This document shows positions 8,481 through 49,912 of a DNA stretch of 50,135 nt, piece after piece. The position numbers were made by a program, and so were the translations under genes. Below the pieces are notes generated by a model. It had not been told where the DNA came from and searched no databases. It saw nothing but the letters and a program-made list of their open reading frames with translations. Location: NCBI GenBank assembly GCA_045224495.1, contig JBGVAK010000071.1, positions 1-50,135 of the forward strand, given 5' to 3'. Positions within the stretch are counted from its first letter, which is position 1; each line of letters opens with the position of its first letter. Source of the DNA: Christensenellales bacterium. Lineage in GTDB: Bacteria > Bacillota > Clostridia > Christensenellales > CAG-138.

Positions 8481-9485
8481 ATGGAAACGAAACTGCTGCA
8501 AATCAAGGATCTGCGGATCGAATTTCACAGCGACGGCGAAGTCACATACGCCGTCAACGGAGTCGACCTGGAGATCGAAGAAGGAAAGACCCTGGGGCTG
8601 GTCGGAGAGACCGGCGCAGGAAAGACGACGACGGCTCTTTCCGTTCTGGGCATGGTCCCCAAACCCGCAGGCAAGGTCCGCTCCGGTGAAGTGCTGCTCA
8701 ACGGCGTCGATATCCTCAAACAAAGCGAAAAGCATCTGGAGGACATCCGCGGCAATCAGGTCGCCATGATCTTCCAGGACCCCATGACAGCACTGAATCC
8801 TGTCATGACGGTGGGCAAGCAGATCGCGGAGGCGATCATCGTCCATGAACATATCGGCAAGGGGGAAGCCATGGAGCGCGCCCGCGCCATGTTGGAAACG
8901 GTCGGTATCCCGGGGGAGCGGGCCAATGAATATCCGCACCAGTTCAGCGGCGGCATGAAACAGCGCGTGGTCATCGCCATGGCCCTTGCCTGCAAGCCGA
9001 AGCTCCTGCTGGCGGACGAACCGACCACCGCGTTGGACGTGACGATCCAGGCCCAGGTGTTGGAGTTGATGCGGAACCTCCGCAAACAGTTCAGCACGGG
9101 CATGCTGATGATCACCCATGATTTCGGCATCGTGGCCGAGGTCTGCGATTCTGTCGCCGTCATGTACGCCGGCAAGATCGTGGAGAGCGGCACTCTGGAA
9201 GACGTGTTCGATCACAAGCGTCATCCCTATACCGAAGGTCTGTTCAACTCCCTGCCCGACGTATCCGACAGAAAGAGCGAGCTCAAGCCCATTCGCGGCC
9301 TGATGCCGGATCCCACGAACCTGCCCACCGGCTGCCCCTTCCATCCGCGCTGCGACTATTGCATGGATTGCTGCTCCCAGCAGGAGCCGCCTAAGGTTTG
9401 GATCAACGATACCCATTATACTCGTTGCTGGCTATATCAGAACACCACGGAAAACCAACTTCACAGCAAGGAGGTGGCTCCATGA
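8481..9485 (+). CDS. Oligo/dipeptide ABC ATP-binding protein (DppD-like)
   Basis: Walker A GETGAGKT, signature FSGGMKQR, Walker [13 protein letters not shown], and a C-terminal oligopeptide-type Cys cluster. Confidence 0.92.
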
Positions 9486-10450
9486 GCGACATTTTGCTGG
9501 AGGTCAAAAACCTCAAAAAATATTTCAAGACGCCCAGAGGTATCCTGCATGCTGTGGATGACGTGAGTTTTGCGCTGGAGCGGGGCAAGACGTTGGGTGT
9601 GGTGGGAGAATCCGGCTGCGGCAAAACCACCACAGGCCGGGCGATCCTTCGCCTGGTGGAGCCCACCAGCGGAGAGGTGATCTTCGAGGGCAGGGACATC
9701 ACCAAGATCTCTGCAAACGAGATGCGGCTCATGCGCAAAGAGATGCAGCTGATCTTCCAAGACCCGTTCTCCTCCCTTGATCCGCGCATGACGGTCAGCG
9801 AAGCCATCGAGGAACCGTTGATCCTCTCCAAGCTCCACAGGAATAAGGATGAACGCTTCGAACGGGTCCTGGAGCTGATGGACACCGTCGGCCTGGCTCG
9901 CCGCCTCCTGAACGCCTATCCTCACGAGTTGGACGGCGGTCGCCGCCAGCGTATCGGTATCGCCCGGGCCCTGTCGGTCCGGCCCAAATTCATCGTCTGC
10001 GACGAGCCGGTGTCCGCGTTGGACGTTTCCATCCAGGCACAGATCCTGAACCTGATGAAGGAGGTGCAAAAGGAATACGGGCTCACATACATATTCATCA
10101 CGCACGATCTGTCCGTTGTAAACCACTTCTCTGACGACATCGCCGTCATGTATCTGGGACGGTTGATCGAAAAAGCGCCTACCGAGGCGCTGTTTGAAAA
10201 GCCCTTGCATCCGTATACGCAGGCGTTGCTTTCCGCCATCCCGATCCCGCGGCTGCACGACAGGGGGACTCGGATCCCCATCAAGGGCGAGATCACGTCG
10301 CCGATCGACCCCAAACCGGTTTGCCGGTTTGCCAACAGGTGCCCCTATTGTACGGAAAAATGCCAAACTGTCGAACCGGAATTGGTCGAAGTGAGCCAAG
10401 GGCATTTCGTCGCCTGTCACAAGGTGATGGAAGATCTGAAACTGAATTGA
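9482..10450 (+). CDS. Oligo/dipeptide ABC ATP-binding protein (DppF-like)
   Basis: ATGA overlap with the preceding gene. Walker A GESGCGKT, signature-region LDGGRRQR, Walker [13 protein letters not shown]. Confidence 0.92.
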
Positions 10451-10531
10451 TCCTTTCCCTGTCGAAAGCGGTTTTGGACAGGACCTCACGAAATAATACA
10501 AGCAGCTTTTCACTGCAGAAAGGGAAAAAAG

Positions 10532-11650
10532 ATGGGTAAATGTACGGAATTCTTGTATTTGAACGAGCAGGAGATGATCCAGGCGGGCGTCCTTGATTAT
10601 GCCCGCTGCATCGACGTGGAAGAGGAGATATTCGGCCTTCTCAGCAAGGGCGATTATGTGATGGGCGGGGACAAGCACAATTCCCACGGCATCATGATCA
10701 AGTTCCCGAAGGAGAGCGAATTCCCCAACATGCCGCTGGAGGGACCGGACCGTCGCTTCATGGCCATGCCGGCGTACCTGGGCGGCCGGTTCAACGTATG
10801 CGGCGTCAAGTGGTACGGTTCCAATATCATCAACCCCCAGCGCGGCCTGCCCCGCTCCATCCTGATGGTGATGCTCAACGACCCGGACACCTGTGAACCC
10901 ATCGCCCTCATGTCAGCCAACCTGATCAGCTCCGTGCGGACGGGCTGCGTGCCTGGCGTGGGGACGCGCTACCTGGCCAGGAAGGACGCGGCGGTGTGCA
11001 CCTGCATCGGCGCCGGCCCCGTGAGCAAAGCCTGCTTCGATGCCATTGTGGTTGAGGCGAAAAACCTGAAGGAGGTCGTCATCTTCGATATCGTCAAGGA
11101 AAAGGGGGAGGCCTTCGCCCGGGAGGTCACGGAGAAATACGGTCTCAAAGCGCGGGCTGCGGATTCCCTGGAGGAGGCCGTCCGTGCAGGCGATATCGTG
11201 AACGCGGCCACCTCGTCGGTGGTGCCTCTCAAGCTGGACGGAGAATGGCTCAAGCCCGGTTCCCTGGCCCTGTTCTCCGGCCGTTTCACCATCGATGAAC
11301 CCTATTTCCAGTCCGCGAAGATCTTCTGGGACAATCCTAAGATGCACGAGGAGTACTTCGAGGAGCACCTGCTGCTGCCGGAGGATCAGCGGTTCGTCAA
11401 CGGCATCGGTGTCCAGATCTATAGGATGATGTACGAAGGGAAGCTTCCTCCGGTCACGGAAGCGAAAGGACTTGGCGACGTGATCAATGGTACGATACCT
11501 GGCCGTGAGTCGGAGGACGATCGGATCTGCTTCATTGCCGGAGGCATGCCCGTCTGGGATGTGGGCTGGTCCTTCGATCTGCTTCAGAACGCAAAGGCCA
11601 TGGGCCTTGGGCAAACGCTCAAGATCTGGGATTCTCCCTACCTCAACTGA
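10532..11650 (+). CDS. Ornithine cyclodeaminase / mu-crystallin family protein
   Basis: 372 aa with a Rossmann segment CTCIGAGPVSKA and the overall OCD_Mu_crystall layout. Substrate unknown. Confidence 0.75.
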   Translation: MGKCTEFLYLNEQEMIQAGVLDYARCIDVEEEIFGLLSKGDYVMGGDKHNSHGIMIKFPKESEFPNMPLEGPDRRFMAMPAYLGGRFNVCGVKWYGSNIINPQRGLPRSILMVMLNDPDTCEPIALMSANLISSVRTGCVPGVGTRYLARKDAAVCTCIGAGPVSKACFDAIVVEAKNLKEVVIFDIVKEKGEAFAREVTEKYGLKARAADSLEEAVRAGDIVNAATSSVVPLKLDGEWLKPGSLALFSGRFTIDEPYFQSAKIFWDNPKMHEEYFEEHLLLPEDQRFVNGIGVQIYRMMYEGKLPPVTEAKGLGDVINGTIPGRESEDDRICFIAGGMPVWDVGWSFDLLQNAKAMGLGQTLKIWDSPYLN

Positions 11651-11701
11651 ACCCTGTGGCTGCATACCGGCTCAAACTGAACGCATAAGGGGATTATCGA
11701 G

Positions 11702-12427
11702 ATGAAAAAAACTGTTTTGATCACCAGTACATGTACGTTCGATGCGAGCAAAAGCAGGTATTATTACAAACTCGATCAAGCCTATGGGGATGCCGTCGCT
11801 GCGGGCGGCGGCATCCCTGTCATCGTCAGCACCGAGAAGATCCCGGAAGACTATGCCGATATGGCGGACGGTCTCCTGCTTACGGGCGGGGAAAGCGTCC
11901 ACCCGGCATACTACGGCGAAACCTTCGATCACCTCGCCAACGACAAAATGGACACGATCCTGTTTCTTCGCTATGGATGCAACGCCGTGCGGGATGAAAC
12001 GGAGATGGCGCTCTTTAGGGCATTCGCCCAGCGCGGCAAACCGATCCTGGGCATCTGCCGGGGCATGCAGGTCATCAACGCCGCCACCGGCGGAAAGAAC
12101 GATCTGGATTTCCCCCGCAGGCATCCTGTGGAGCACAATCTGGGCGTCTCCCATGAAGTCGTTGCGGAGCCGGATTCCCTGGTGGGACGCCTTTTCGGTG
12201 AGCGATTCATCACCAACAGCTATCATAGGGATTGCGCTGTTTCCCCCGGCCCGGACATGCGGGTGACGGCACGATCGGTCGATGGCATCATCGAAGCGAT
12301 CGAACATATACGGCAGCCCATCTGGGGCGTCCAGTTTCACCCGGAGCGCATGCGCGGGGATCATCCGAATCCGATCTTTGGACAGGACGCTACGGAGCTG
12401 TTCCGCTTCTTCGTCGATCGCTGCTGA
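11702..12427 (+). CDS. Peptidase C26 / gamma-glutamyl-gamma-aminobutyrate hydrolase family (class I glutamine amidotransferase-like)
   Basis: Carries GICRGMQVIN (nucleophile Cys) and GVQFHPE (His/Glu) motifs. Confidence 0.88.
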   Translation: MKKTVLITSTCTFDASKSRYYYKLDQAYGDAVAAGGGIPVIVSTEKIPEDYADMADGLLLTGGESVHPAYYGETFDHLANDKMDTILFLRYGCNAVRDETEMALFRAFAQRGKPILGICRGMQVINAATGGKNDLDFPRRHPVEHNLGVSHEVVAEPDSLVGRLFGERFITNSYHRDCAVSPGPDMRVTARSVDGIIEAIEHIRQPIWGVQFHPERMRGDHPNPIFGQDATELFRFFVDRC

Positions 12428-15851: not shown

Positions 15852-15900
15852 AACCCGAAATGAGTGCAAATTCGAGCCGTTTTTCCCGATCGCTAAATAC

Positions 15901-16057: not shown

Positions 16058-16411
16058 ATGGAACTGACATACACGGAGAAAGACGGACTCCTATTCCCAA
16101 ACCTTGAACTTGACGAGCAGCCAGAAGGCAGCATCGGCAAGTATGGCCGGATGCGCAAGCGCTACCTGGAGCAAAAGCACGACGGCACTTTCACCGCCCT
16201 GGTCCTCTCCGGCAAACTGACGGAACACTTACTAGAAATCGACCACACGGCCAGGGAACAACTCGAAGTCACAGTCGTTCAAATGGCAGCCGCAGAGGGC
16301 ATCACCGAACAGCTAAAAGCCACAGACCAAATGGAGTGGCTCCGTCGCACGAACAGCATCCGCAACCGGGCGGAAGAGATCGTCATCCGGGAAGTGGTTT
16401 ACGTGGAATAA
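16058..16411 (+). CDS. tnpV: Transposon-encoded TnpV-like protein
   Basis: MELTYTEKDGLLFPNLELDEQPEGSIGKYGRMRKRYLEQ... is the characteristic TnpV N-terminus seen on clostridial mobilisable and conjugative transposons. AAAGGAGG RBS. Confidence 0.8.
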   Translation: MELTYTEKDGLLFPNLELDEQPEGSIGKYGRMRKRYLEQKHDGTFTALVLSGKLTEHLLEIDHTAREQLEVTVVQMAAAEGITEQLKATDQMEWLRRTNSIRNRAEEIVIREVVYVE

Positions 16412-16432
16412 CGGATAACGGTTATACACAGC

Positions 16433-16471
16433 ATTTAACCCCTTTAGCCTATAAGTCTAAAGGGGTTAAAT
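16433..16471. terminator. Perfect 15-bp hairpin between convergent genes
   Basis: ATTTAACCCCTTTAG (16433-16447), a 9-nt loop, then CTAAAGGGGTTAAAT (16457-16471). Confidence 0.6.
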
Positions 16472-16499
16472 CGTTATCAATAAATGTGATTTGTTCGAT

Positions 16500-17600
16500 T
16501 CAGTCTGCCAATGCTTTGGGTTCATCCTCTACAACTTCGATTGTCGTTTTCAAGAAACGTGTATCACAGTTACATATTGTCGAAATAAAGTAATCCATTT
16601 TTTGAACTGATCTGCAAACACGATTGTGATAAGCCATCACCCAAATATATTTCTTTAGGATCTTTTCTCGTGTTTCTGCCTCTTTGATATTCTCCAATGC
16701 AATATCAACATAGTTCCCAAATTCTTTTAACTTATTTTGCACTATTCTTTTATGCGCTTGCAAAAACAACTCCTGTGTTTGCTTTTGCTGATCCTGGATA
16801 TTTGCTTTAGGCATAAACATTTCAGCATCCTTGGGAGAAGCTGTGAGCACTGCTTTACTGAACTGTTCAATAACATCAGGAGCTATAATACTGGACAAAT
16901 CAATGATATACAGATAGTTTACAACCCAACAGTTATCATCCCACGATACCATAATATCTTTGTTCAGATATTGAAATAATTGATCAAGAAAGCAATTGTT
17001 GTTCGCAACAGCACATTGCTTAGCATCTTCCTCTGAAACATTTTCTCCATTCTTCATTTTTTCTACGATTTTCAAAGCGTGCTCATACGCTTTGTGAGAA
17101 CAGAATCTCGTATTATTAAGCTCGTTGACTATATCTTTGCTAATAAGAATACGAGGATATTGTGCTGTTCCTTCCATTGAAACCGCATCTATTACTCCTT
17201 GGCCAAAGACATAGTCATCATTGAAGGACAATTGTCCTTTGACAATTCCTCCCCTAACAAATAAACCATAATCCAGCACAAAGCCACGTTGGATATCGGA
17301 AACCGCCTTGATAAAAGCGAGCGATCTAACCGGTTCCAACCTATCATCACTGGTTTCCATGCAGAGTAATATGTTGTCCGAAAATAATCTTTCCCTAATA
17401 TCTATTTGAGCAAACTCTCCCAGCAACGGTGACTGTCGTAGGATACTGATATGCTCCTTGGTCCTTTGGATCGCATTGTGAATCGAGTTCAACAGTTCCG
17501 GAACTTTATCAGGATGTTGCCGGAAAAACTCTTTATATCCTAGAATATCGAAATAAGCAATATAATACTCTTTAATCAGATTCGGTACCGAATACGCCAT
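16500..17600 (-). CDS. Orphan protein with a nucleotidyl-cyclase-like (class III cyclase/GGDEF-type palm) N-domain and an unknown C-terminal domain
   Basis: Trimmed to ATG 17600 after GGAAAGGA, giving 366 aa. Strongly AT-rich. Motifs are AYFDILGYKEFF (D18), RLFSDNILLC (D75) and FVRGGIVKGQL...GQGVIDAVSMEGTAQYPRILIS. The fold assignment is by eye only. Confidence 0.85.
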   Translation of the reverse strand: MAYSVPNLIKEYYIAYFDILGYKEFFRQHPDKVPELLNSIHNAIQRTKEHISILRQSPLLGEFAQIDIRERLFSDNILLCMETSDDRLEPVRSLAFIKAVSDIQRGFVLDYGLFVRGGIVKGQLSFNDDYVFGQGVIDAVSMEGTAQYPRILISKDIVNELNNTRFCSHKAYEHALKIVEKMKNGENVSEEDAKQCAVANNNCFLDQLFQYLNKDIMVSWDDNCWVVNYLYIIDLSSIIAPDVIEQFSKAVLTASPKDAEMFMPKANIQDQQKQTQELFLQAHKRIVQNKLKEFGNYVDIALENIKEAETREKILKKYIWVMAYHNRVCRSVQKMDYFISTICNCDTRFLKTTIEVVEDEPKALAD

Positions 17601-17670
17601 GTTTACAGTCCTTTCCAGATGCAAACAGAAATTGCATCACATATAACAAATTAATATGTGCAATTACGCT

Positions 17671-18627
17671 TTATTTCAGCCGCGTGCAACGCGAGCAGAT
17701 CAGCTTTTTCAGCGCGTCTTTCATATCTTGCGGCAAATAGGAATTGTCGCACAGCTTGAAATAGTCTTCCTCGGCGGCAAGCACCTTTTTGATGATCTTC
17801 TCCGCCGCTGCTCTGGCAATGCCGCATTGTTCCGCAAAATGCAGGAAGTCGTTGAGGCGAAGATGGGTTTTCTTTCCATTCATCGTCAACGCAAACTCCT
17901 CCTGATCCTCCGGCAAAAGGAGATTGACCGGAAGTAGGTCATATGCCGCTGAAAGCGCATAGGTCCCGCTGCCAGGCGCGGTCTCGATCAGCGAAAAGTT
18001 CTTCAGGTGCATGTCCGAATTGCCGGTGACGAATGAGATCACCAGCCGCATAAACAGCTCCGACAGGTCCAGACCCGTTCGCACGGAATATCGCGTAATG
18101 ATTTTAGCGCAGCGCTCGTAGGAGCCGCGATACTTGTCCTCTGTCAATCTGCCATCCAGCTGACAGAAATCCTCCATGGCATACTTCTGCACGCGAAGGC
18201 GTTGTTTTCCGGTGATCTTCCGATCGATTCGCTTGGTGATATAGGCAAACTGCCCGTTCATCTGCAGCAGGCCATGGGGGACGGTCTTGACGCCCGCCCG
18301 CTCCGCGATCCGCATGGCCAGGTCCTCCGCCTCCGGCATATTGCGGAATTCCGGCGTTTGCGGCTTCAGGATATACCCCGTGGGATAGTTCACCAGCGTG
18401 AGCCGCGGCGTATCCTGCTGATCCAAATGCAGCGACATCTTCCGCTGCACGCCCGGCACAGTGAGGCCCTTGAACACCGTCTCCGTCACATATGCCTGCA
18501 GCGCTTCTTCCCTCAGGTCCAGCTCGGGCAGCACATCCGTCCCAAAAAACTTTCGGATGCAGCGCGCATGCCAGCCCTGGTTGCTCTCCTCCGGTAGGAT
18601 CGGTTTTCCGCAGCACAGACACTTCAT
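17671..18627 (-). CDS. hipT: HipA-family Ser/Thr kinase toxin, C-terminal kinase part only (HipT-like)
   Basis: Trimmed to ATG 18627, an ATGA overlap with the upstream gene. P-loop-like VPGVQRKMSL, catalytic GNSDMHLKNFS, and an N-terminal Cys/His segment MKCLCCGKPI...WHARCIRKFFG. Confidence 0.85.
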   Translation of the reverse strand: MKCLCCGKPILPEESNQGWHARCIRKFFGTDVLPELDLREEALQAYVTETVFKGLTVPGVQRKMSLHLDQQDTPRLTLVNYPTGYILKPQTPEFRNMPEAEDLAMRIAERAGVKTVPHGLLQMNGQFAYITKRIDRKITGKQRLRVQKYAMEDFCQLDGRLTEDKYRGSYERCAKIITRYSVRTGLDLSELFMRLVISFVTGNSDMHLKNFSLIETAPGSGTYALSAAYDLLPVNLLLPEDQEEFALTMNGKKTHLRLNDFLHFAEQCGIARAAAEKIIKKVLAAEEDYFKLCDNSYLPQDMKDALKKLICSRCTRLK

Positions 18628-18953
18628 TGGGCATCCTCCTCGATCCGCACCGCACCGATGCAATCCCTGCAGGCGACCAGAAGCAGTCCAAAGCGATCCT
18701 TCTGATCTATCTTCCAGTTTTTGCTCACGATGTGCAGGAGCCATCCCTCCGGGATCAGCCCATCGAAGAAGGAGAACAGTGTCTTTGATTCAAAGGGAGC
18801 TTTTTGGAGGGGAAGCGTCAGGGAGACCGGCGCGGCGTCCGGCGACGCCAAGTAATTCGCATCGTAGGCAAACGCATAGCCATTGTCTGTTTCCATCAGG
18901 ATGCCGGCGAAGGTATCCCGCACATACACGGAGGCTTTTCGAAATGCACTCAT
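18624..18953 (-). CDS. hipS: HipA N-terminal-subdomain protein (HipS-like)
   Basis: 109 aa with the HipA N-terminal (couple_hipA) pattern: VYVRDTFAGILMETDNGYAFAYDANYL...FDGLIPEGW. Has 4-nt overlaps with both neighbours. Confidence 0.8.
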   Translation of the reverse strand: MSAFRKASVYVRDTFAGILMETDNGYAFAYDANYLASPDAAPVSLTLPLQKAPFESKTLFSFFDGLIPEGWLLHIVSKNWKIDQKDRFGLLLVACRDCIGAVRIEEDAQ

Positions 18954-19153
18954 TCGTCATCCGCCTTCCCCGGCACGGCCTTCATGCCGAACATGGCCAG
19001 CGCCTGATTGACCTTGTCCATGCGCACCGTTTCCTTGCCCTGTTCCAGATCTCGGACGAAGCGCAGCCCAAGCCCCGCCCGGATGGCAAACTCCTCCTGG
19101 GTGAGTCCCGCTGCTTTTCTATTCTCTTTGATAAATGTCCCGATATTTTTCAT
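18950..19153 (-). CDS. hipB: XRE-family HTH protein (HipB-like)
   Basis: 67 aa. IKENRKAAGLTQEEFAIRAGLGLRFVRDLEQGK is an HTH_3 motif. It is the first gene of the three-gene unit. Confidence 0.85.
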   Translation of the reverse strand: MKNIGTFIKENRKAAGLTQEEFAIRAGLGLRFVRDLEQGKETVRMDKVNQALAMFGMKAVPGKADDE

Positions 19154-19159
19154 AGGCCA

Positions 19160-19188
19160 ATTTTATACCTTATCGGGTACATTGTCAA
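19160..19188 (-). promoter_or_regulatory. Candidate hipB promoter giving a (near-)leaderless mRNA
   Basis: Minus strand has TTGACA (19183-19188), a 17-nt spacer, then TAAAAT (19160-19165). Only 6 nt separate the -10 from the ATG, and there is no Shine-Dalgarno sequence. Confidence 0.5.
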
Positions 19189-19263
19189 CCTGCTTTCTTT
19201 ATTTTATACCATATCGGGTATATTTTAAACGATGCTGTTTAGGATTATACCCGTTAAGGTATA
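19164..19263. promoter_or_regulatory. Three 18-nt palindromic operator-like sites, TATACC-N6-GGTATA, spaced 41 nt apart
   Basis: tataccttatcgggtaca (19164-19181), tataccatatcgggtata (19205-19222) and tatacccgttaaggtata (19246-19263). The first sits in the promoter spacer. Confidence 0.6.
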
Positions 19264-19319
19264 TTTTTCAAGGGTTATCAATTGTAAATAACGATTAGCT
19301 ATGTTTTCATCAAATTTGT

Positions 19320-19794
19320 CTATTCAATGGGAACCGATCTGAGATCAAATGCCCAAAGACAGAGGCGGGAAATCGGTTAGTGCCTTTGCCGGATATGTTG
19401 GTCCCAATCCTTCGCGATGCAAAGAAAAAAGGTTCTCTCTATGTATGTCCTTCGGCGGACGGGCAGAGAATGACGGAAACTGCCTGGAACACGTCCTGGA
19501 ATTCTTATCTCCATTTTCTGAACATCCAGGCAGGCGGCAGAGACGCCAGTCGAAGCAGGCCTAAACTCGTCGTGGTAGACAGATTCACCGCTCACCAACT
19601 GCGGCATACGTATGATGCTCTACGACGCTGGTGTGGATGTAAAGTCTGCTCAGGACATGCTGGGGCATGCCGATGCTTCCGTGACCATGGGCATATACAC
19701 CCATCTGTCAGCACAGAAAAAAGCGAAGGCCGTGGCTGCATTGAATCAACATATTACGGAAAACGTAACTCCGATCGTAATGAACGCACAGTAA
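19320..19794 (+). pseudogene. Tyrosine recombinase/integrase, 3' fragment with a frameshift
   Basis: One frame gives ...EIKCPKTEAGNRLVPLPDMLVPIL...FTAHQLRHTY. The motif then continues in another frame from 19612: MLYDAGVDVKSAQDMLGHADASVTMGIYTHL. The frameshift is near 19610, and the N-terminal roughly 200 aa are absent. Confidence 0.8.
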
Positions 19795-19814
19795 GGTATG
19801 GGCCAATTATCCCT

Positions 19815-46374: not shown

Positions 46375-47218
46375 TGGCTCTTCAACAAAAAGTGTGGAAT
46401 GGTCTTCTGACAGAAGGCAGAGACAGATATTTGATCAAGGTGAAAAAGTAGTCGTCGTTGCGGAACCCGTAACCGATACGCTTGGCAACCTTGATCTTGT
46501 TATTGAACCCTTCCAGCTTGCCGGTGCTGATCGGATAAACAGCGTGGGAGATCAAACCTTCCAACCGCTTTTCCTTCAGCTCCGCGAATTTGACCAGCTG
46601 CGGGATATGGCTCGCTTTCGCGGCGTTGAACCAGGCAGTCCATCTCTCTTCAGCGATATCCGGATCGTCCAGCTCAAACAATTCGGACATCTCTTCCTTC
46701 ATTGCATAACATAAAGCCAGGCTGCTGTGATCCGACAGGATCTGTTTCAAAGATTCGGCCTTGCTGCCCTTCAGCTTCCGTCCGGACATCAGCAGATTCC
46801 ACCGGCTGGACTTGATCGCGGAATATGTATGAAGTTCCTCTCTGGCGGCTGCTTTGGTCTCTTTCCTCTTCGCAGGGTCTGCCTCCCGGAGAAGAGCGTC
46901 CTGATACTCGTGTGACCGCGCCTGATGCGCCTTTGCTTCCTCCAGCCTGACGGAACCAAGAACATCCTTCCCGAACTGCGCCTGCATATGGTATCTGTCG
47001 TACACGATCCTTGCCTGCGGCAGATGTTTTTCGACCAATATATGGTAGGACGCATTCATATCCATGGCGATTGCCTTTACTTCTGAAAGAAGGGAAAGGT
47101 CATATTCCTCAAAGAACTTTCGAAAATGCAGAGTATAATCTCTAAATCGAGGGAAGAATTGTCGCATGACATGCGACCTCCTTTGTTCGTGCTCTGCTAT
47201 ACTATGACCATCAACCAA
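46375..47218 (-). mobile_element. ISL3-family insertion sequence remnant (right end plus DDE part only)
   Basis: The transposase C-terminus is present and GGCTCTTCAACAAAAAGTGTGG at 46375 looks like a terminal inverted repeat. No N-terminal half or left end is found in the window. Confidence 0.6.
46382..47167 (-). pseudogene. ISL3 transposase, C-terminal fragment
   Basis: AMDMNASYH, IVYDRYHM and TGKLEGFNNKIKVAKRIGYGFRNDDYF are DDE_Tnp_ISL3 blocks. The zf/HTH N-terminus and the first catalytic Asp region are missing. ATG 47167 is preceded by AAGGAGG. Confidence 0.7.
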
Positions 47219-48186: not shown

Positions 48187-49143
48187 TTAATTCTGTATGG
48201 TATCTTTGATTATTGACTCTGCAAAATCTTTTGCCCCTGATAACAATTTGTGACAAAGCGCTTTTTTGTTCTGCTCATTCTGCGTAGAAGTAAACATACT
48301 TTTGTTACGTTTGAAGACGCCATTCACCTTGTCATAATCTGCTGGCACTTCAAATACATTTACCAAAAGATAAATGACATCATCTACAGTGAACCACTCG
48401 CCTTTATTCTCGTTAGTCACAATGTACATCGCCATGATGACCTGCTCCTTTGCGCCTGAGAGTGATTTTACTGCAGGGTAGTTTCCCACATTGAGGTCAT
48501 CAGCAGTTACAGAAGCATAAGCAGAAGGCGCTTTGTTTGTAGCCTTCCGTGTCTTCGTATGGGGTTTCTTGTCTGTATTATTCTCTTTCGGTTTATAATC
48601 CTTAATATAGGCTATACCAGCATCTGTCAACATATAGTACTTACCCGCTTTTGCACCTTCTGGCGGTTTAGTGTCCATTATATGACCTTTTTCAACAAGT
48701 CTGTATAATGACACACTTGGATTTTTAGGGGGTGTTCGCCTTGCCTCGGAATAATATCTTTTTACATCATCAATAAAGAACTCTTTCATCCCGTTTTTCA
48801 TTTCGTCAAAATAGGCAGCAAACAAAGTAAAATCCAGTTCAGATAGCGCCCCATACTGTTTCAAAAAGGCGGACAAATTGGTGCGAGAAAGATCATTTTC
48901 CGGTGAAGGTACAATCGTTTCCAGCTTCGACTCTTCACCCGCTTCAAGCATTGGTGCTTGAGATGCAGTTCCAATAAAATCTGACTGTACAGACGCTGTC
49001 TGCGTCCGAACCATTGCCTCAACAGCAGCGGGAAGAACGGCGTTCATGAAGTTTACACGCTGCTGCTCAACGACATCAGCTGGCCCCTCAGCTTTAAATT
49101 CAATAGCCCCAACCTTATATTCCAGTTTCAAAGTATCCTTCAT
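48187..49143 (-). CDS. Hypothetical protein (318 aa) with two similar winged-helix-like modules joined by a Lys/Thr-rich linker
   Basis: AT-rich ORF starting 12 nt after the upstream gene, with AGGAGGAATAATA preceding ATG 49143. No family recognised. Confidence 0.8.
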   Translation of the reverse strand: MKDTLKLEYKVGAIEFKAEGPADVVEQQRVNFMNAVLPAAVEAMVRTQTASVQSDFIGTASQAPMLEAGEESKLETIVPSPENDLSRTNLSAFLKQYGALSELDFTLFAAYFDEMKNGMKEFFIDDVKRYYSEARRTPPKNPSVSLYRLVEKGHIMDTKPPEGAKAGKYYMLTDAGIAYIKDYKPKENNTDKKPHTKTRKATNKAPSAYASVTADDLNVGNYPAVKSLSGAKEQVIMAMYIVTNENKGEWFTVDDVIYLLVNVFEVPADYDKVNGVFKRNKSMFTSTQNEQNKKALCHKLLSGAKDFAESIIKDTIQN

Positions 49144-49155
49144 TATTATTCCTCC

Positions 49156-49893
49156 TTACATTAAACCTGCACGGTTATATAGGTCTTCCAACATAACCCG
49201 ATACTCTCGGGCTATTCTATCAATATCAAGCTTCCCGGCAGTATAGGTTATCGAATGAGCTGAATAGTTCCCTACATCACGAAAAGCATCAAAGTTATTA
49301 GAGATTCTCGAAGGAATCCCCAAACTGGGGTTTTGACGTGCATCCTTAACGATTCCTTCAAGCATTTTGTGTGTTCCATCAGGTCTTGTTATGGCTGCTT
49401 CTACACCCTTGTTTTGATAAGTCAAAACGAGCAGCACTTCAAACAGTCGCCGCATAAGAACAGCACATGCATCGTAGCAGTTTTGCCCATAGCAGTGATT
49501 AATCTGATGAACTAACTTATCCAAATAGGGTTGTTTTCCGCAGAACTTTACTTCTTCTAACAACTCGTTATTTGATTCAATAGTTACCGTATCTTGCCAC
49601 AGTTGCCCGTATTCACGATCCAATGCCTGCAGCACTGCCGGTACAAATTCGAGTGCGTTCTTATCAGTTTTTGAGAAACAAAACGCTTTTCCCTTACCCT
49701 TTGTGAGATTGGTTTTCAATCTAGAAGTGTTCGGTTTACTGAAATTACACTCTTCCATCCAGGTTGCAATACTGGATACTTTGAACGCAACATCTCCCTC
49801 CTCCTTATAGTGAAAATAACACAGCATCTTCGCACGATCGACTTCAAGCATTTCTTTAAGTTCAGTAGTTTCCATATATTCTAATAGTTTCAT
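49156..49893 (-). CDS. Hypothetical protein (245 aa) with a DUF4145-like C-terminal domain
   Basis: Trimmed to ATG 49893 after GAGGGGTGA. The C-terminus CYDACAVLMRRLFEVLLVL...MLEGIVKDA...FDAFRDVGNYSAHS resembles the DUF4145 pattern as I recall it. AT-rich. Confidence 0.8.
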   Translation of the reverse strand: MKLLEYMETTELKEMLEVDRAKMLCYFHYKEEGDVAFKVSSIATWMEECNFSKPNTSRLKTNLTKGKGKAFCFSKTDKNALEFVPAVLQALDREYGQLWQDTVTIESNNELLEEVKFCGKQPYLDKLVHQINHCYGQNCYDACAVLMRRLFEVLLVLTYQNKGVEAAITRPDGTHKMLEGIVKDARQNPSLGIPSRISNNFDAFRDVGNYSAHSITYTAGKLDIDRIAREYRVMLEDLYNRAGLM

Positions 49894-49912
49894 CGAATCA
49901 CCCCTCATCTAA

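Follow-up and report, generated by a model that had tools for sequence, protein, structure and literature searches.

A cyclase-fold gene behind a HipBST operon belongs to a large mobile family that recurs in type I restriction-modification loci

In a 50,135-nucleotide stretch of a Christensenellales genome (GenBank assembly GCA_045224495.1, contig JBGVAK010000071.1, positions 1 to 50,135; hereinafter the window), an AT-rich gene, which we term X, lies directly behind a complete hipB-hipS-hipT toxin-antitoxin (TA) operon. This arrangement raises the question of whether X is a fourth component of the HipBST system or a protein with a role of its own. A preliminary description of the locus, made by eye from the sequence, had offered both possibilities, and had regarded X as an orphan in which a nucleotidyl-cyclase-like palm domain is fused to a domain of no recognizable affinity. 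Here, we report that X has a predicted class III cyclase fold with conserved metal-binding positions, that it belongs to a family of several thousand sequence clusters, and that its closest relatives outside the HipBST-linked clade are lodged in type I restriction-modification (R-M) operons. The evidence on X comes entirely from structure prediction and genomic association. Taking it together, we give about an even chance to the reading that X is a self-contained, mobile enzyme of the phage-defense or abortive-infection type that uses nucleoside triphosphates (NTPs) and is not a HipBST subunit.

The N-terminal palm domain

Gene X (16500..17600, minus strand), as defined by its open reading frame (ORF) and translation, an AlphaFold2 model and a family search, codes for a 366-residue cytosolic protein. 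It displays no hydrophobic segment (maximum KD19 1.48), excluding a membrane-protein reading. The AlphaFold2 model of the full-length protein, built from 62 homologues, has a predicted local distance difference test (pLDDT) score of 88.6 and a predicted template modeling (pTM) score of 0.87. When this model was compared with the PDB using Foldseek, all 50 of the best matches were catalytic domains of class III adenylyl or guanylyl cyclases, such as Ma1120, CyaB, Rv1625c, Rv1900c, soluble guanylyl cyclase and mammalian adenylyl cyclase, with the match spanning about 160-180 residues (E 3e-5 to 2e-3, probability 1.00, target template modeling score 0.5-0.68). A fold search of the BFVD likewise returned giant-virus cyclase domains only. 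The palm domain was delimited to residues ~9-165 (17106..17576, minus strand) from the Foldseek matches, profile-profile alignment (hhalign) against five solved cyclases and a sub-threshold hit of the Pfam profile PF00211. As modeled, this region is shown to adopt the class III nucleotidyl-cyclase fold, which bears out the cyclase-like domain that the preliminary description had proposed from three short motif blocks. A sequence search of the solved structures with two family profiles retrieved no cyclase, the best matches (E 0.22-0.59) being helical noise.

To map residues, the N-terminal domains of 89 distant relatives (22-43% identity to X) were aligned as a profile with the five solved cyclases; the alignment is colinear over 147 columns (P = 0.0025). 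It places D18, in the motif F-x-D-I-x-G-F, at the position of the first metal-binding aspartate and D75, in a G-D context in the cyclases, at the second. The cyclases bear these two aspartates on β1 and on the β2/3 hairpin. R71, which is a lysine in most relatives, lies four residues before D75 and corresponds to the purine-binding lysine, while R116 corresponds to the phosphate-position arginine of the R-x-G-x-x-x-G motif. The placement of D18, D75 and R116 derives from this alignment together with the Foldseek scores and not from measured distances. All three are invariant in the 62 homologues, and among the 89 distant relatives D18 and D75 are each kept in 88, R116 in 87 and a lysine or arginine at position 71 in 83. 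Thus, the assignment of D18, D75 and R116 to conserved catalytic positions, first made by eye, is upheld in at least 87 of the 89. Of the base-specifying pair, which in class III cyclases is Lys and Asp or Glu and Cys, the position four residues before D75 is a lysine in 52 and an arginine in 31 of the 89, whereas the second is nonpolar (Y/F/I/L). G21, S74, G117 and G133, as well as K317 from the C-terminal half, are present in 89/89. The palm domain further shows invariant or near-invariant residues that are the family's own, namely S74 and N76 (in the signature FSDN), Q104, G117, G133, E143 and P149.

As judged from these alignments, the two-metal NTP site of X looks intact, with D18, D75, K/R71 and R116 all in place. 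The metal aspartates and glycine loops are kept in 87-89 of the 89 distant relatives, beyond the need of a mere scaffold, and we infer from this that X is most likely an NTP-using enzyme. Its product could be a cyclic nucleoside monophosphate (cNMP) or the outcome of another nucleotidyl transfer, with a signal-generating cyclase activity being an unproven candidate.

The C-terminal half

The preliminary description had treated the C-terminal ~200 residues as a single domain without a known match. The absence of a match stands: when the C-terminal half, which is modeled well by itself (pLDDT 88.3), was compared with PDB folds, nothing assignable was found (best E 0.86, probability 0.08). However, it is not one unit. 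A domain table of 265 relatives divides it into a variable helical insert, residues ~166-270 (16791..17105, minus strand), and a conserved C-terminal module, residues ~271-356 (16533..16790, minus strand), comprising two long helices and a β-hairpin. The insert is short or absent in family members of 250-290 residues. Identities in the C-terminal half fall below those of the whole protein, and the insert and C-terminal half evolve faster than the N-terminal domain (nonsynonymous divergence, dN, of 0.14-0.20 vs 0.07-0.12). The variable insert readily suggests itself as the candidate surface for sensing a trigger. In the C-terminal module K317 is invariant (89/89) and W320, N326 and C329 are near-invariant. 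Two specific proposals for this region were rejected, namely that the last 97 residues form a second, degenerate cyclase domain (hhalign P = 0.7) and that H325, C329, C343 and C345 form a zinc site, C343 and C345 being unconserved outside the close clade.

A large, unnamed and AT-rich family

X had been called an orphan, a label that database searches overturned: a word-index search recovered 206 homologues, every one of them unnamed, and a profile search of 1.84 billion cluster representatives (from clusters at 50% identity) recovered 7,012 at E <= 1e-3 and 2,022 at E <= 1e-10. X belongs to no Pfam, NCBIfam or PADLOC family, and no Pfam family covers the 89 diverse relatives, all of which (89/89) are matched by PHROG 23933 ('unknown function'). 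The family is present in Clostridia, Bacilli, Rhizobiales, Bacteroidota and Rickettsiales, and the copies on RefSeq plasmids, from Bacillus, Rhizobium, Agrobacterium, Spirosoma and a Rickettsiales symbiont, without exception carry the annotation 'hypothetical protein'. In the literature, we found no paper on the X family or on a gene in the hsdM-hsdS interval, nor one that associates a cyclase-like gene with either HipBST or that interval.

The low G+C content by which X had first attracted attention is real: at 0.377 it is the minimum among the ORFs of at least 150 codons in the window, in keeping with the earlier estimate of well below 40%. The surroundings had been put at more than 60% G+C, which holds for part of the wider flanks (0.59-0.64) but not for the immediate neighbors hipB, hipS, hipT and tnpV (0.55-0.56). 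The G+C content at third codon positions (GC3) of X is about 0.35-0.373, as compared to 0.65-0.73 for hipBST. Across the family, 33 of 35 loci have an X homologue that is AT-richer than its flanks, the mean G+C difference being -0.11. The AT-richness is a family trait and not an orphan mark. The homologues have 24-42% G+C where the flanks have 33-59%, and this persists even where synonymous sites are saturated inside the cassette described below. Such a constant low G+C suggests either maintained AT-richness or frequent replacement.

X in type I restriction-modification operons

All six of the nearest placeable outgroup relatives (P0006, P0007, P0008, P0014, P0017 and P0020; 46-54% identity) lie between hsdM and hsdS in the order hsdM-X-hsdS. 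The more distant members at the surveyed loci L030 and L043 do likewise, bringing the total to eight independent loci. In the six nearest relatives the stop codon of hsdM overlaps the start of X (ATGGTRA) and hsdS begins 17-26 nt inside X, mostly with a 17-nt overlap; the junctions in L030 and L043 are tight or overlapping but of another form. Examples of R-M operons with X are found in L062 (3241-8247), L063 (3169-7929), L057 (4321-9051), L059 (1669-6423) and L008 (7371-12308). The operon order is hsdM-X-hsdS, followed by variable defense cargo and then hsdR and ygjP. The cargo between hsdS and hsdR is AbiTii with an OLD-like ATPase, GmrSD with FRG, SIR2 (SIR2_2), or a HATPase protein. Over the seven operons with related HsdM proteins the identities are 57-85% for HsdM, 69-90% for HsdR, 40-63% for X and ~30-35% for HsdS, showing that X is a stable part of that operon family; the HsdM of L043 is only ~25% identical to those of the other seven.

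These operons raise the possibility that X assists or regulates, as a subunit, a co-translated machine, namely HsdM2S1 and secondarily HipBST, acting either as a PrrC-like guardian that the complex keeps silent and that is freed once a phage inhibitor disables it, or as a modulator of restriction, and not as an autonomous sensor-effector. The exact hsdM-hsdS placement in eight independent loci, the overlaps conserved in six of them, and the constancy of this slot while other defense genes use the separate, variable slot between hsdS and hsdR are all consistent with such a role, for which PrrC, which lies within a type I locus and is activated on R-M inhibition, supplies a precedent (PMC2610378; PMC12707154). 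We nevertheless consider it unlikely: R-M and TA neighbors are lacking altogether for many family members, such as those in the rpsI-X-integrase loci discussed below, on Bacillus plasmids and in L064, and X shows neither sequence nor fold similarity to PrrC or RloC.

The R-M island of L008 also codes for a short, 223-residue palm-only paralogue (17745-18437, minus strand; E 8e-19 with the family hidden Markov model) alongside its long X. Other proteins of 223-235 residues encoded after hsdS were considered as short X paralogues and, with the exception of this L008 protein, rejected.

A mobile HipBST-X-tnpV cassette in the window

The R-M embedding is seen in the relatives, whereas the copy in the window itself resides in a HipBST cassette. 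In a neighbor-joining tree the HipBST-linked clade nests within the hsdM-X-hsdS clade, indicating that the HipBST association is derived. This linkage is limited to the window, L007 and L014/L015 (at least 72% identity), which amount to about three of ~41 distinct contexts, and it is absent in all ~38 other distinct contexts surveyed.

In the window hipB (18950..19153, minus strand; TIGR03070, E 6.1e-22) codes for a helix-turn-helix (HTH) protein of 67 residues, hipS (18624..18953, minus strand; Couple_hipA, E 2.7e-26, and TIGR03071, E 1.4e-31) for a HipA N-terminal-domain antitoxin of 109 residues, and hipT (17671..18627, minus strand; HipA_C, E 2.4e-44, and a gene call in identical contigs) for a HipA_C kinase toxin of 318 residues. 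The three genes are packed into one operon in which stop and start codons overlap, hipS and hipT sharing 4 nt. On the other side of X, and convergent with it, lies tnpV (16058..16411, plus strand; Pfam TnpV, E 3.9e-42), coding for the transposon-encoded protein TnpV. Comparison by blastn of L007, L014 and L015 with the window delimits a segment of ~3.1 kb (16132..19269, minus strand) that is 77-82% identical in nucleotide sequence between loci with otherwise unrelated flanks. Three diverged cassettes retain the order hipB-hipS-hipT-X-tnpV in unrelated surroundings, with identities of 72-80% for X, 83-86% for HipT, 77-78% for HipS and 66-74% for TnpV. This shared gene order in otherwise unrelated surroundings identifies the segment as a mobile cassette. 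An identical X protein occurs in 37 blocks of the collection; the contigs that code for it keep the same hipBST-X-tnpV order while the flank beyond tnpV is of at least three kinds, and in L001 and L005 this flank switches at 15897/15932.

X begins with the ATG at 17600 and its stop codon ends at 16500. An in-frame TTG at 17624 would extend it to 374 residues; the ATG is favored by a ribosome-binding site (RBS) 8 nt upstream and by the diverged homologues, which begin at the equivalent methionine. This RBS, GGAAAGGA at 17616-17609, lies in the 70-nt hipT-X spacer (17601..17670, minus strand) and is kept in the diverged cassettes. The preliminary description was exact in placing X on the hipBST strand with this gap, and also in seeing neither a promoter nor a terminator there, as a consensus scan of the spacer found no site resembling either. 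The same scan of the hipBST-X region found strong promoter-like sites only upstream of hipB, where two σ70-like matches (19271-19244 and 19188-19160) each score 11/12.

The perfect 15-bp hairpin noted at the end of X was recovered at 16433..16471 (arms 16471-16457 and 16447-16433), between the convergent X and tnpV. It starts 29 nt past the stop codon of X, has a folding energy of -26.3 kcal/mol (z = -2.9) and lacks a U-tract. Since its stem is conserved in two cassettes of ~80% identity, with a compensatory A:T to T:A swap, it is likely to be functional, and it is probably a terminator, without a U-tract, shared by X and tnpV.

A frame-disrupted tyrosine recombinase (integrase) remnant (19380-19800, plus strand) just past the hipB promoter marks the hipB-side edge of the island; its C-terminal part (19612..19794, plus strand) matches Phage_integrase (E 3.3e-6), and it is called as a truncated fragment of 59-139 residues in the identical contigs. 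Residues 1-30 of HipT (18540-18627, minus strand; MKCLCCGKPILPEESNQGWHARC) are rich in Cys and His and constitute an N-terminal extension that resembles a zinc ribbon. A second AT-rich patch (G+C 0.41) lies toward the window's right end, with ORFs at 48187-49908 and 46382-47167, both on the minus strand; one of them has a DUF4145 domain and an ISL3-family transposase adjoins. DUF4145 is frequent in R-M and defense loci.

Recombination between hipT and X

X is under purifying selection, with a ratio of nonsynonymous to synonymous divergence (dN/dS) of 0.11-0.16. The synonymous divergences of the genes of the cassette are strongly discordant. In the comparison of L007 with L014, hipS has a dS of 0.04 and hipT one of 0.36, while X is saturated at 1.41; when the window is compared with L014, the values are 1.38 (hipS) and 0.65 (X). 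This discordance places a recombination breakpoint between hipT and X and shows that X and the Hip genes have not co-evolved but recombine as modules inside the cassette. The cassette is accordingly a mosaic: the X of the window is nearer that of L014, while its hipS and hipT are equidistant from those of L007 and L014.

These data bear directly on the proposal that X is a true fourth component of HipBST, i.e., a co-transcribed and co-adapted partner, target, co-toxin or HipT regulator. Its strand, the 70-nt distance from hipT across a spacer devoid of terminator- or promoter-like sites, and the preservation of gene order in three diverged cassettes are what such a component would display. However, the linkage is restricted to the clade of the window, which is nested among relatives whose six nearest outgroups occupy the hsdM-hsdS slot; X has no start/stop overlap with hipT, whereas hipB, hipS and hipT overlap each other; its GC3 is far below theirs (0.35 vs 0.65-0.73); and the discordant dS values denote recombination rather than co-evolution. 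Moreover, a survey of Hip kinase operons mentions no such gene (PMC8262856). Consequently, of the two possibilities first offered for X, we consider membership in HipBST very improbable indeed.

Other contexts and the search for an effector

Beyond the hsdM-hsdS slot, type I R-M genes occur in the same cluster as X at about 12 of 35 genome loci. In eight loci X borders an integrated element, directly following rplM-rpsI and preceding an integrase. In these cases (L010, L024, L026, L027, L029, L031, L032 and L034, at about 9400-12200 in each) X is inserted 3′ of rplM-rpsI, where elements integrate recurrently in the genomes of Ruminococcus and Oscillospiraceae, as the first gene of the element and convergent with its integrase. 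Further copies adjoin serine recombinases, a type ISP enzyme or, on an Agrobacterium plasmid, Dsr1. Sirtuin-type defense genes lie near X in two unrelated hosts, namely Dsr1 in L054 (1253-5837; pAtG3_79a) and SIR2_2 in L008 (12385-13746). In a survey of 115 flanking proteins from 31 loci, the commonest neighbors were integrases, ribosomal proteins S9/L13 (which reflect the insertion site), type I M, S and R subunits, HTH proteins, recombinases, Schlafen/AlbA and Fic. Defense islands and R-M operons recur around the homologues, whereas linkage to HipBST is a property of one clade.

No CARF, SAVED, cNMP-binding or TIR effector was found among these 115 neighbors, and neither the window nor 10 loci annotated with Pfam contain a cyclic-nucleotide-binding (CNB) effector gene, in agreement with the original remark that none is adjacent to X. 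This has consequences for the idea that X is a signaling cyclase of the Pycsar or Pucsar type, with its receptor-effector encoded elsewhere in the genome. The class III fold and metal aspartates are as in PycC (PMC11224242), but neither the 31 loci nor the window offer a CNB-domain, TIR, transmembrane (TM), CARF or SAVED effector, PADLOC returns no PycC hit, and the transition-state Asn/Arg pair is absent. A conserved but unlinked receptor is also unlikely across hosts as disparate as Clostridia, Bacilli, Rhizobiales, Bacteroidota and Rickettsiales, making such signaling a highly improbable function of X.

X is always carried or bordered by mobile DNA, be it the tnpV cassette, elements with integrases or serine recombinases, or plasmids, and it is AT-rich relative to its hosts. 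Together with the match to a PHROG family derived from phage and prophage proteins, this could be taken to mean that X serves the mobile element as anti-defense, addiction or element-regulation cargo. Its coupling within intact type I R-M operons is hard to square with anti-restriction, and the scans used found no match in 50,697 phage genomes or IMG/VR; we view service to the element as very unlikely. A phage-borne, anti-defense origin of X is neither supported nor needed.

Weighing a self-contained defense role

The recurrence of X in R-M operons, defense islands and element edges, with no effector among the 115 neighbors, fits the reading of X as a self-contained protein of the abortive-infection type, which the preliminary description had given as the other possibility, and X most likely acts as a self-contained conflict or defense module. 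Several observations weigh against this. The defense role is assigned through guilt by association. No PADLOC model matches X, the only hit being a chance-level one to BrxA (E 0.0095). No phage-borne relatives were found in 50,697 phage records by tblastn or in two IMG/VR scans. The conserved translational coupling to hsdM and hsdS could fit X as an R-M accessory. As for the enzyme itself, the Pfam profile PF00211 (Guanylate_cyc) scores 18.3 bits on X, below its cut-off of 21.9 and over residues 14-47 only, and matches just one of the 89 relatives (E <= 0.01). Furthermore, the third of the motif blocks picked out by eye agrees with the cyclases at R116 but not at the positions of the transition-state asparagine and arginine. 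The former is I137 in X and I/V in 86/89 relatives, and the latter is S141 in X and variable in the family (E/K/N/S/T/Q). These substitutions make cyclase chemistry uncertain, and the domain could bind NTP without being catalytic.

Pressed further, the family-wide loss of the canonical Asn/Arg pair would make X an inactive pseudo-cyclase, i.e., an NTP- or nucleic-acid-binding scaffold or sensor, with any activity residing in the C-terminal module. That module, for which there is no solved relative, indeed holds the strongest family-specific invariants (K317, W320 and N326). Yet the retention in diverged members of the metal aspartates, the Lys/Arg before D75, R116 and the glycine loops is a pattern to be expected of catalysis rather than of mere binding, and the palm has additional near-invariant polar residues in N76 and Q104. 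We hence consider a pseudo-cyclase to be rather improbable and favor an NTP-using enzyme that acts as a self-contained defense module.

A tentative mechanism

If X is such an enzyme, its history and action might be sketched as follows. From an outgroup home between hsdM and hsdS it would have moved into the 3.1-kb hipBST-X-tnpV cassette. There, read-through from the hipB promoter, which is autoregulated, would probably give low expression, with transcription ending at the conserved hairpin; its distal position in the operon and its AT-rich codons in a GC-rich host would keep it scarce. A trigger would work via either the variable helical part or the loss of a co-expressed complex, upon which the palm domain would convert an NTP to a cyclic or linear nucleotide product. 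The product, or the drain on the NTP itself, would then arrest the cell without a dedicated receptor protein. That NTP depletion or the product itself might be the effector is a speculation prompted by the lack of a receptor.

A more far-reaching form of this idea, which we put forward as an unlikely conjecture, is that X is the founder of a class of receptor-less, cyclase-fold, NTP-consuming defense enzymes. Its members would be co-translated with a guarded complex (HsdM2S1 in the relatives, HipBST here), and a phage anti-restriction or anti-TA factor that disables this complex would set them free. K317 and N326 of the C-terminal module would substitute for the absent Asn/Arg pair and so complete the active site, and arrest would follow from nucleotide depletion or a toxic product.

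Significance

X represents a family of ~7,000 clusters, extending from Clostridia to Rhizobiales and Rickettsiales, that has no name in domain or defense databases and whose cyclase active site is recognizable though atypical. If it is a true defense enzyme, it would extend bacterial immunity by a receptor-less cyclase-fold effector. X could also account for an unannotated gene found with many type I R-M systems in Firmicutes from the gut and rumen. For annotation, a defined family with domain boundaries and candidate catalytic residues can take the place of 'orphan' or 'fourth HipBST component'.

Comparison with known systems

With the class III cyclases (PF00211; e.g., Ma1120, Rv1900c, CyaB and Rv1625c) X shares the fold, the order of secondary structure elements, the metal aspartates, the Lys/Arg and the arginine of RxGxxxG. 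The cyclases are head-to-tail dimers with the active sites at the interface and yield cNMP plus PPi. X differs in having I137 and a variable residue in place of the Asn/Arg pair, in scoring below the Pfam threshold, in the signature FSDN, with an invariant asparagine after the aspartate, where the cyclases have xGDx, and in its fused ~200-residue helical extension with invariants of its own. X thus resembles the class III cyclases but is not a demonstrable member of them.

The Pycsar and Pucsar systems likewise deploy cyclase-fold enzymes with two catalytic aspartates, PycC and PucC, in phage defense (PMC11224242; bioRxiv 10.64898/2026.08.12.744502). These are, however, two-gene systems with a CNB-TIR or CNB-TM effector, whereas X never has an effector nearby; PycC retains the full set of class III catalytic motifs, which X does not, and X has no PADLOC match to PycC. 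X is therefore not a Pycsar or Pucsar system.

The minimal CRISPR polymerase (mCpol) of Panoptes and the Cas10/GGDEF proteins are related palm-type enzymes that join nucleotides in defense, and they have a small-small-Asp-polar motif on the β-hairpin (GGDD/GGDEF) comparable to the FSDN of X. The 50 top PDB fold matches of X include no GGDEF or Cas10 domain, and the Pfam mCpol and GGDEF models hit neither X nor the 89 relatives. While mCpol systems carry two-transmembrane (2TM)/CARF effector partners (PMC12657218), X has none. X is not a GGDEF, Cas10 or mCpol protein.

The PrrC/RloC guardians follow the same logic of an extra, potentially toxic gene in an hsd operon. PrrC combines an ATP-binding cassette (ABC) ATPase with an anticodon nuclease. 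It sits inside a type I locus and becomes active upon inhibition of the R-M enzyme, EcoprrI (PMC2610378; PMC12707154). These proteins are unrelated to X and occupy a different slot, X being between hsdM and hsdS. By analogy, the methyltransferase complex may govern X as EcoprrI governs PrrC.

Finally, HipBST is a three-gene system, and X, though appended to the complete hipB-hipS-hipT operon in the window and in two diverged cassettes, is not among the described types of Hip operons (PMC8262856) and is not a HipBST component in a family-wide sense. X is best described as an uncharacterized variant of the defense-associated cyclase-fold enzymes.

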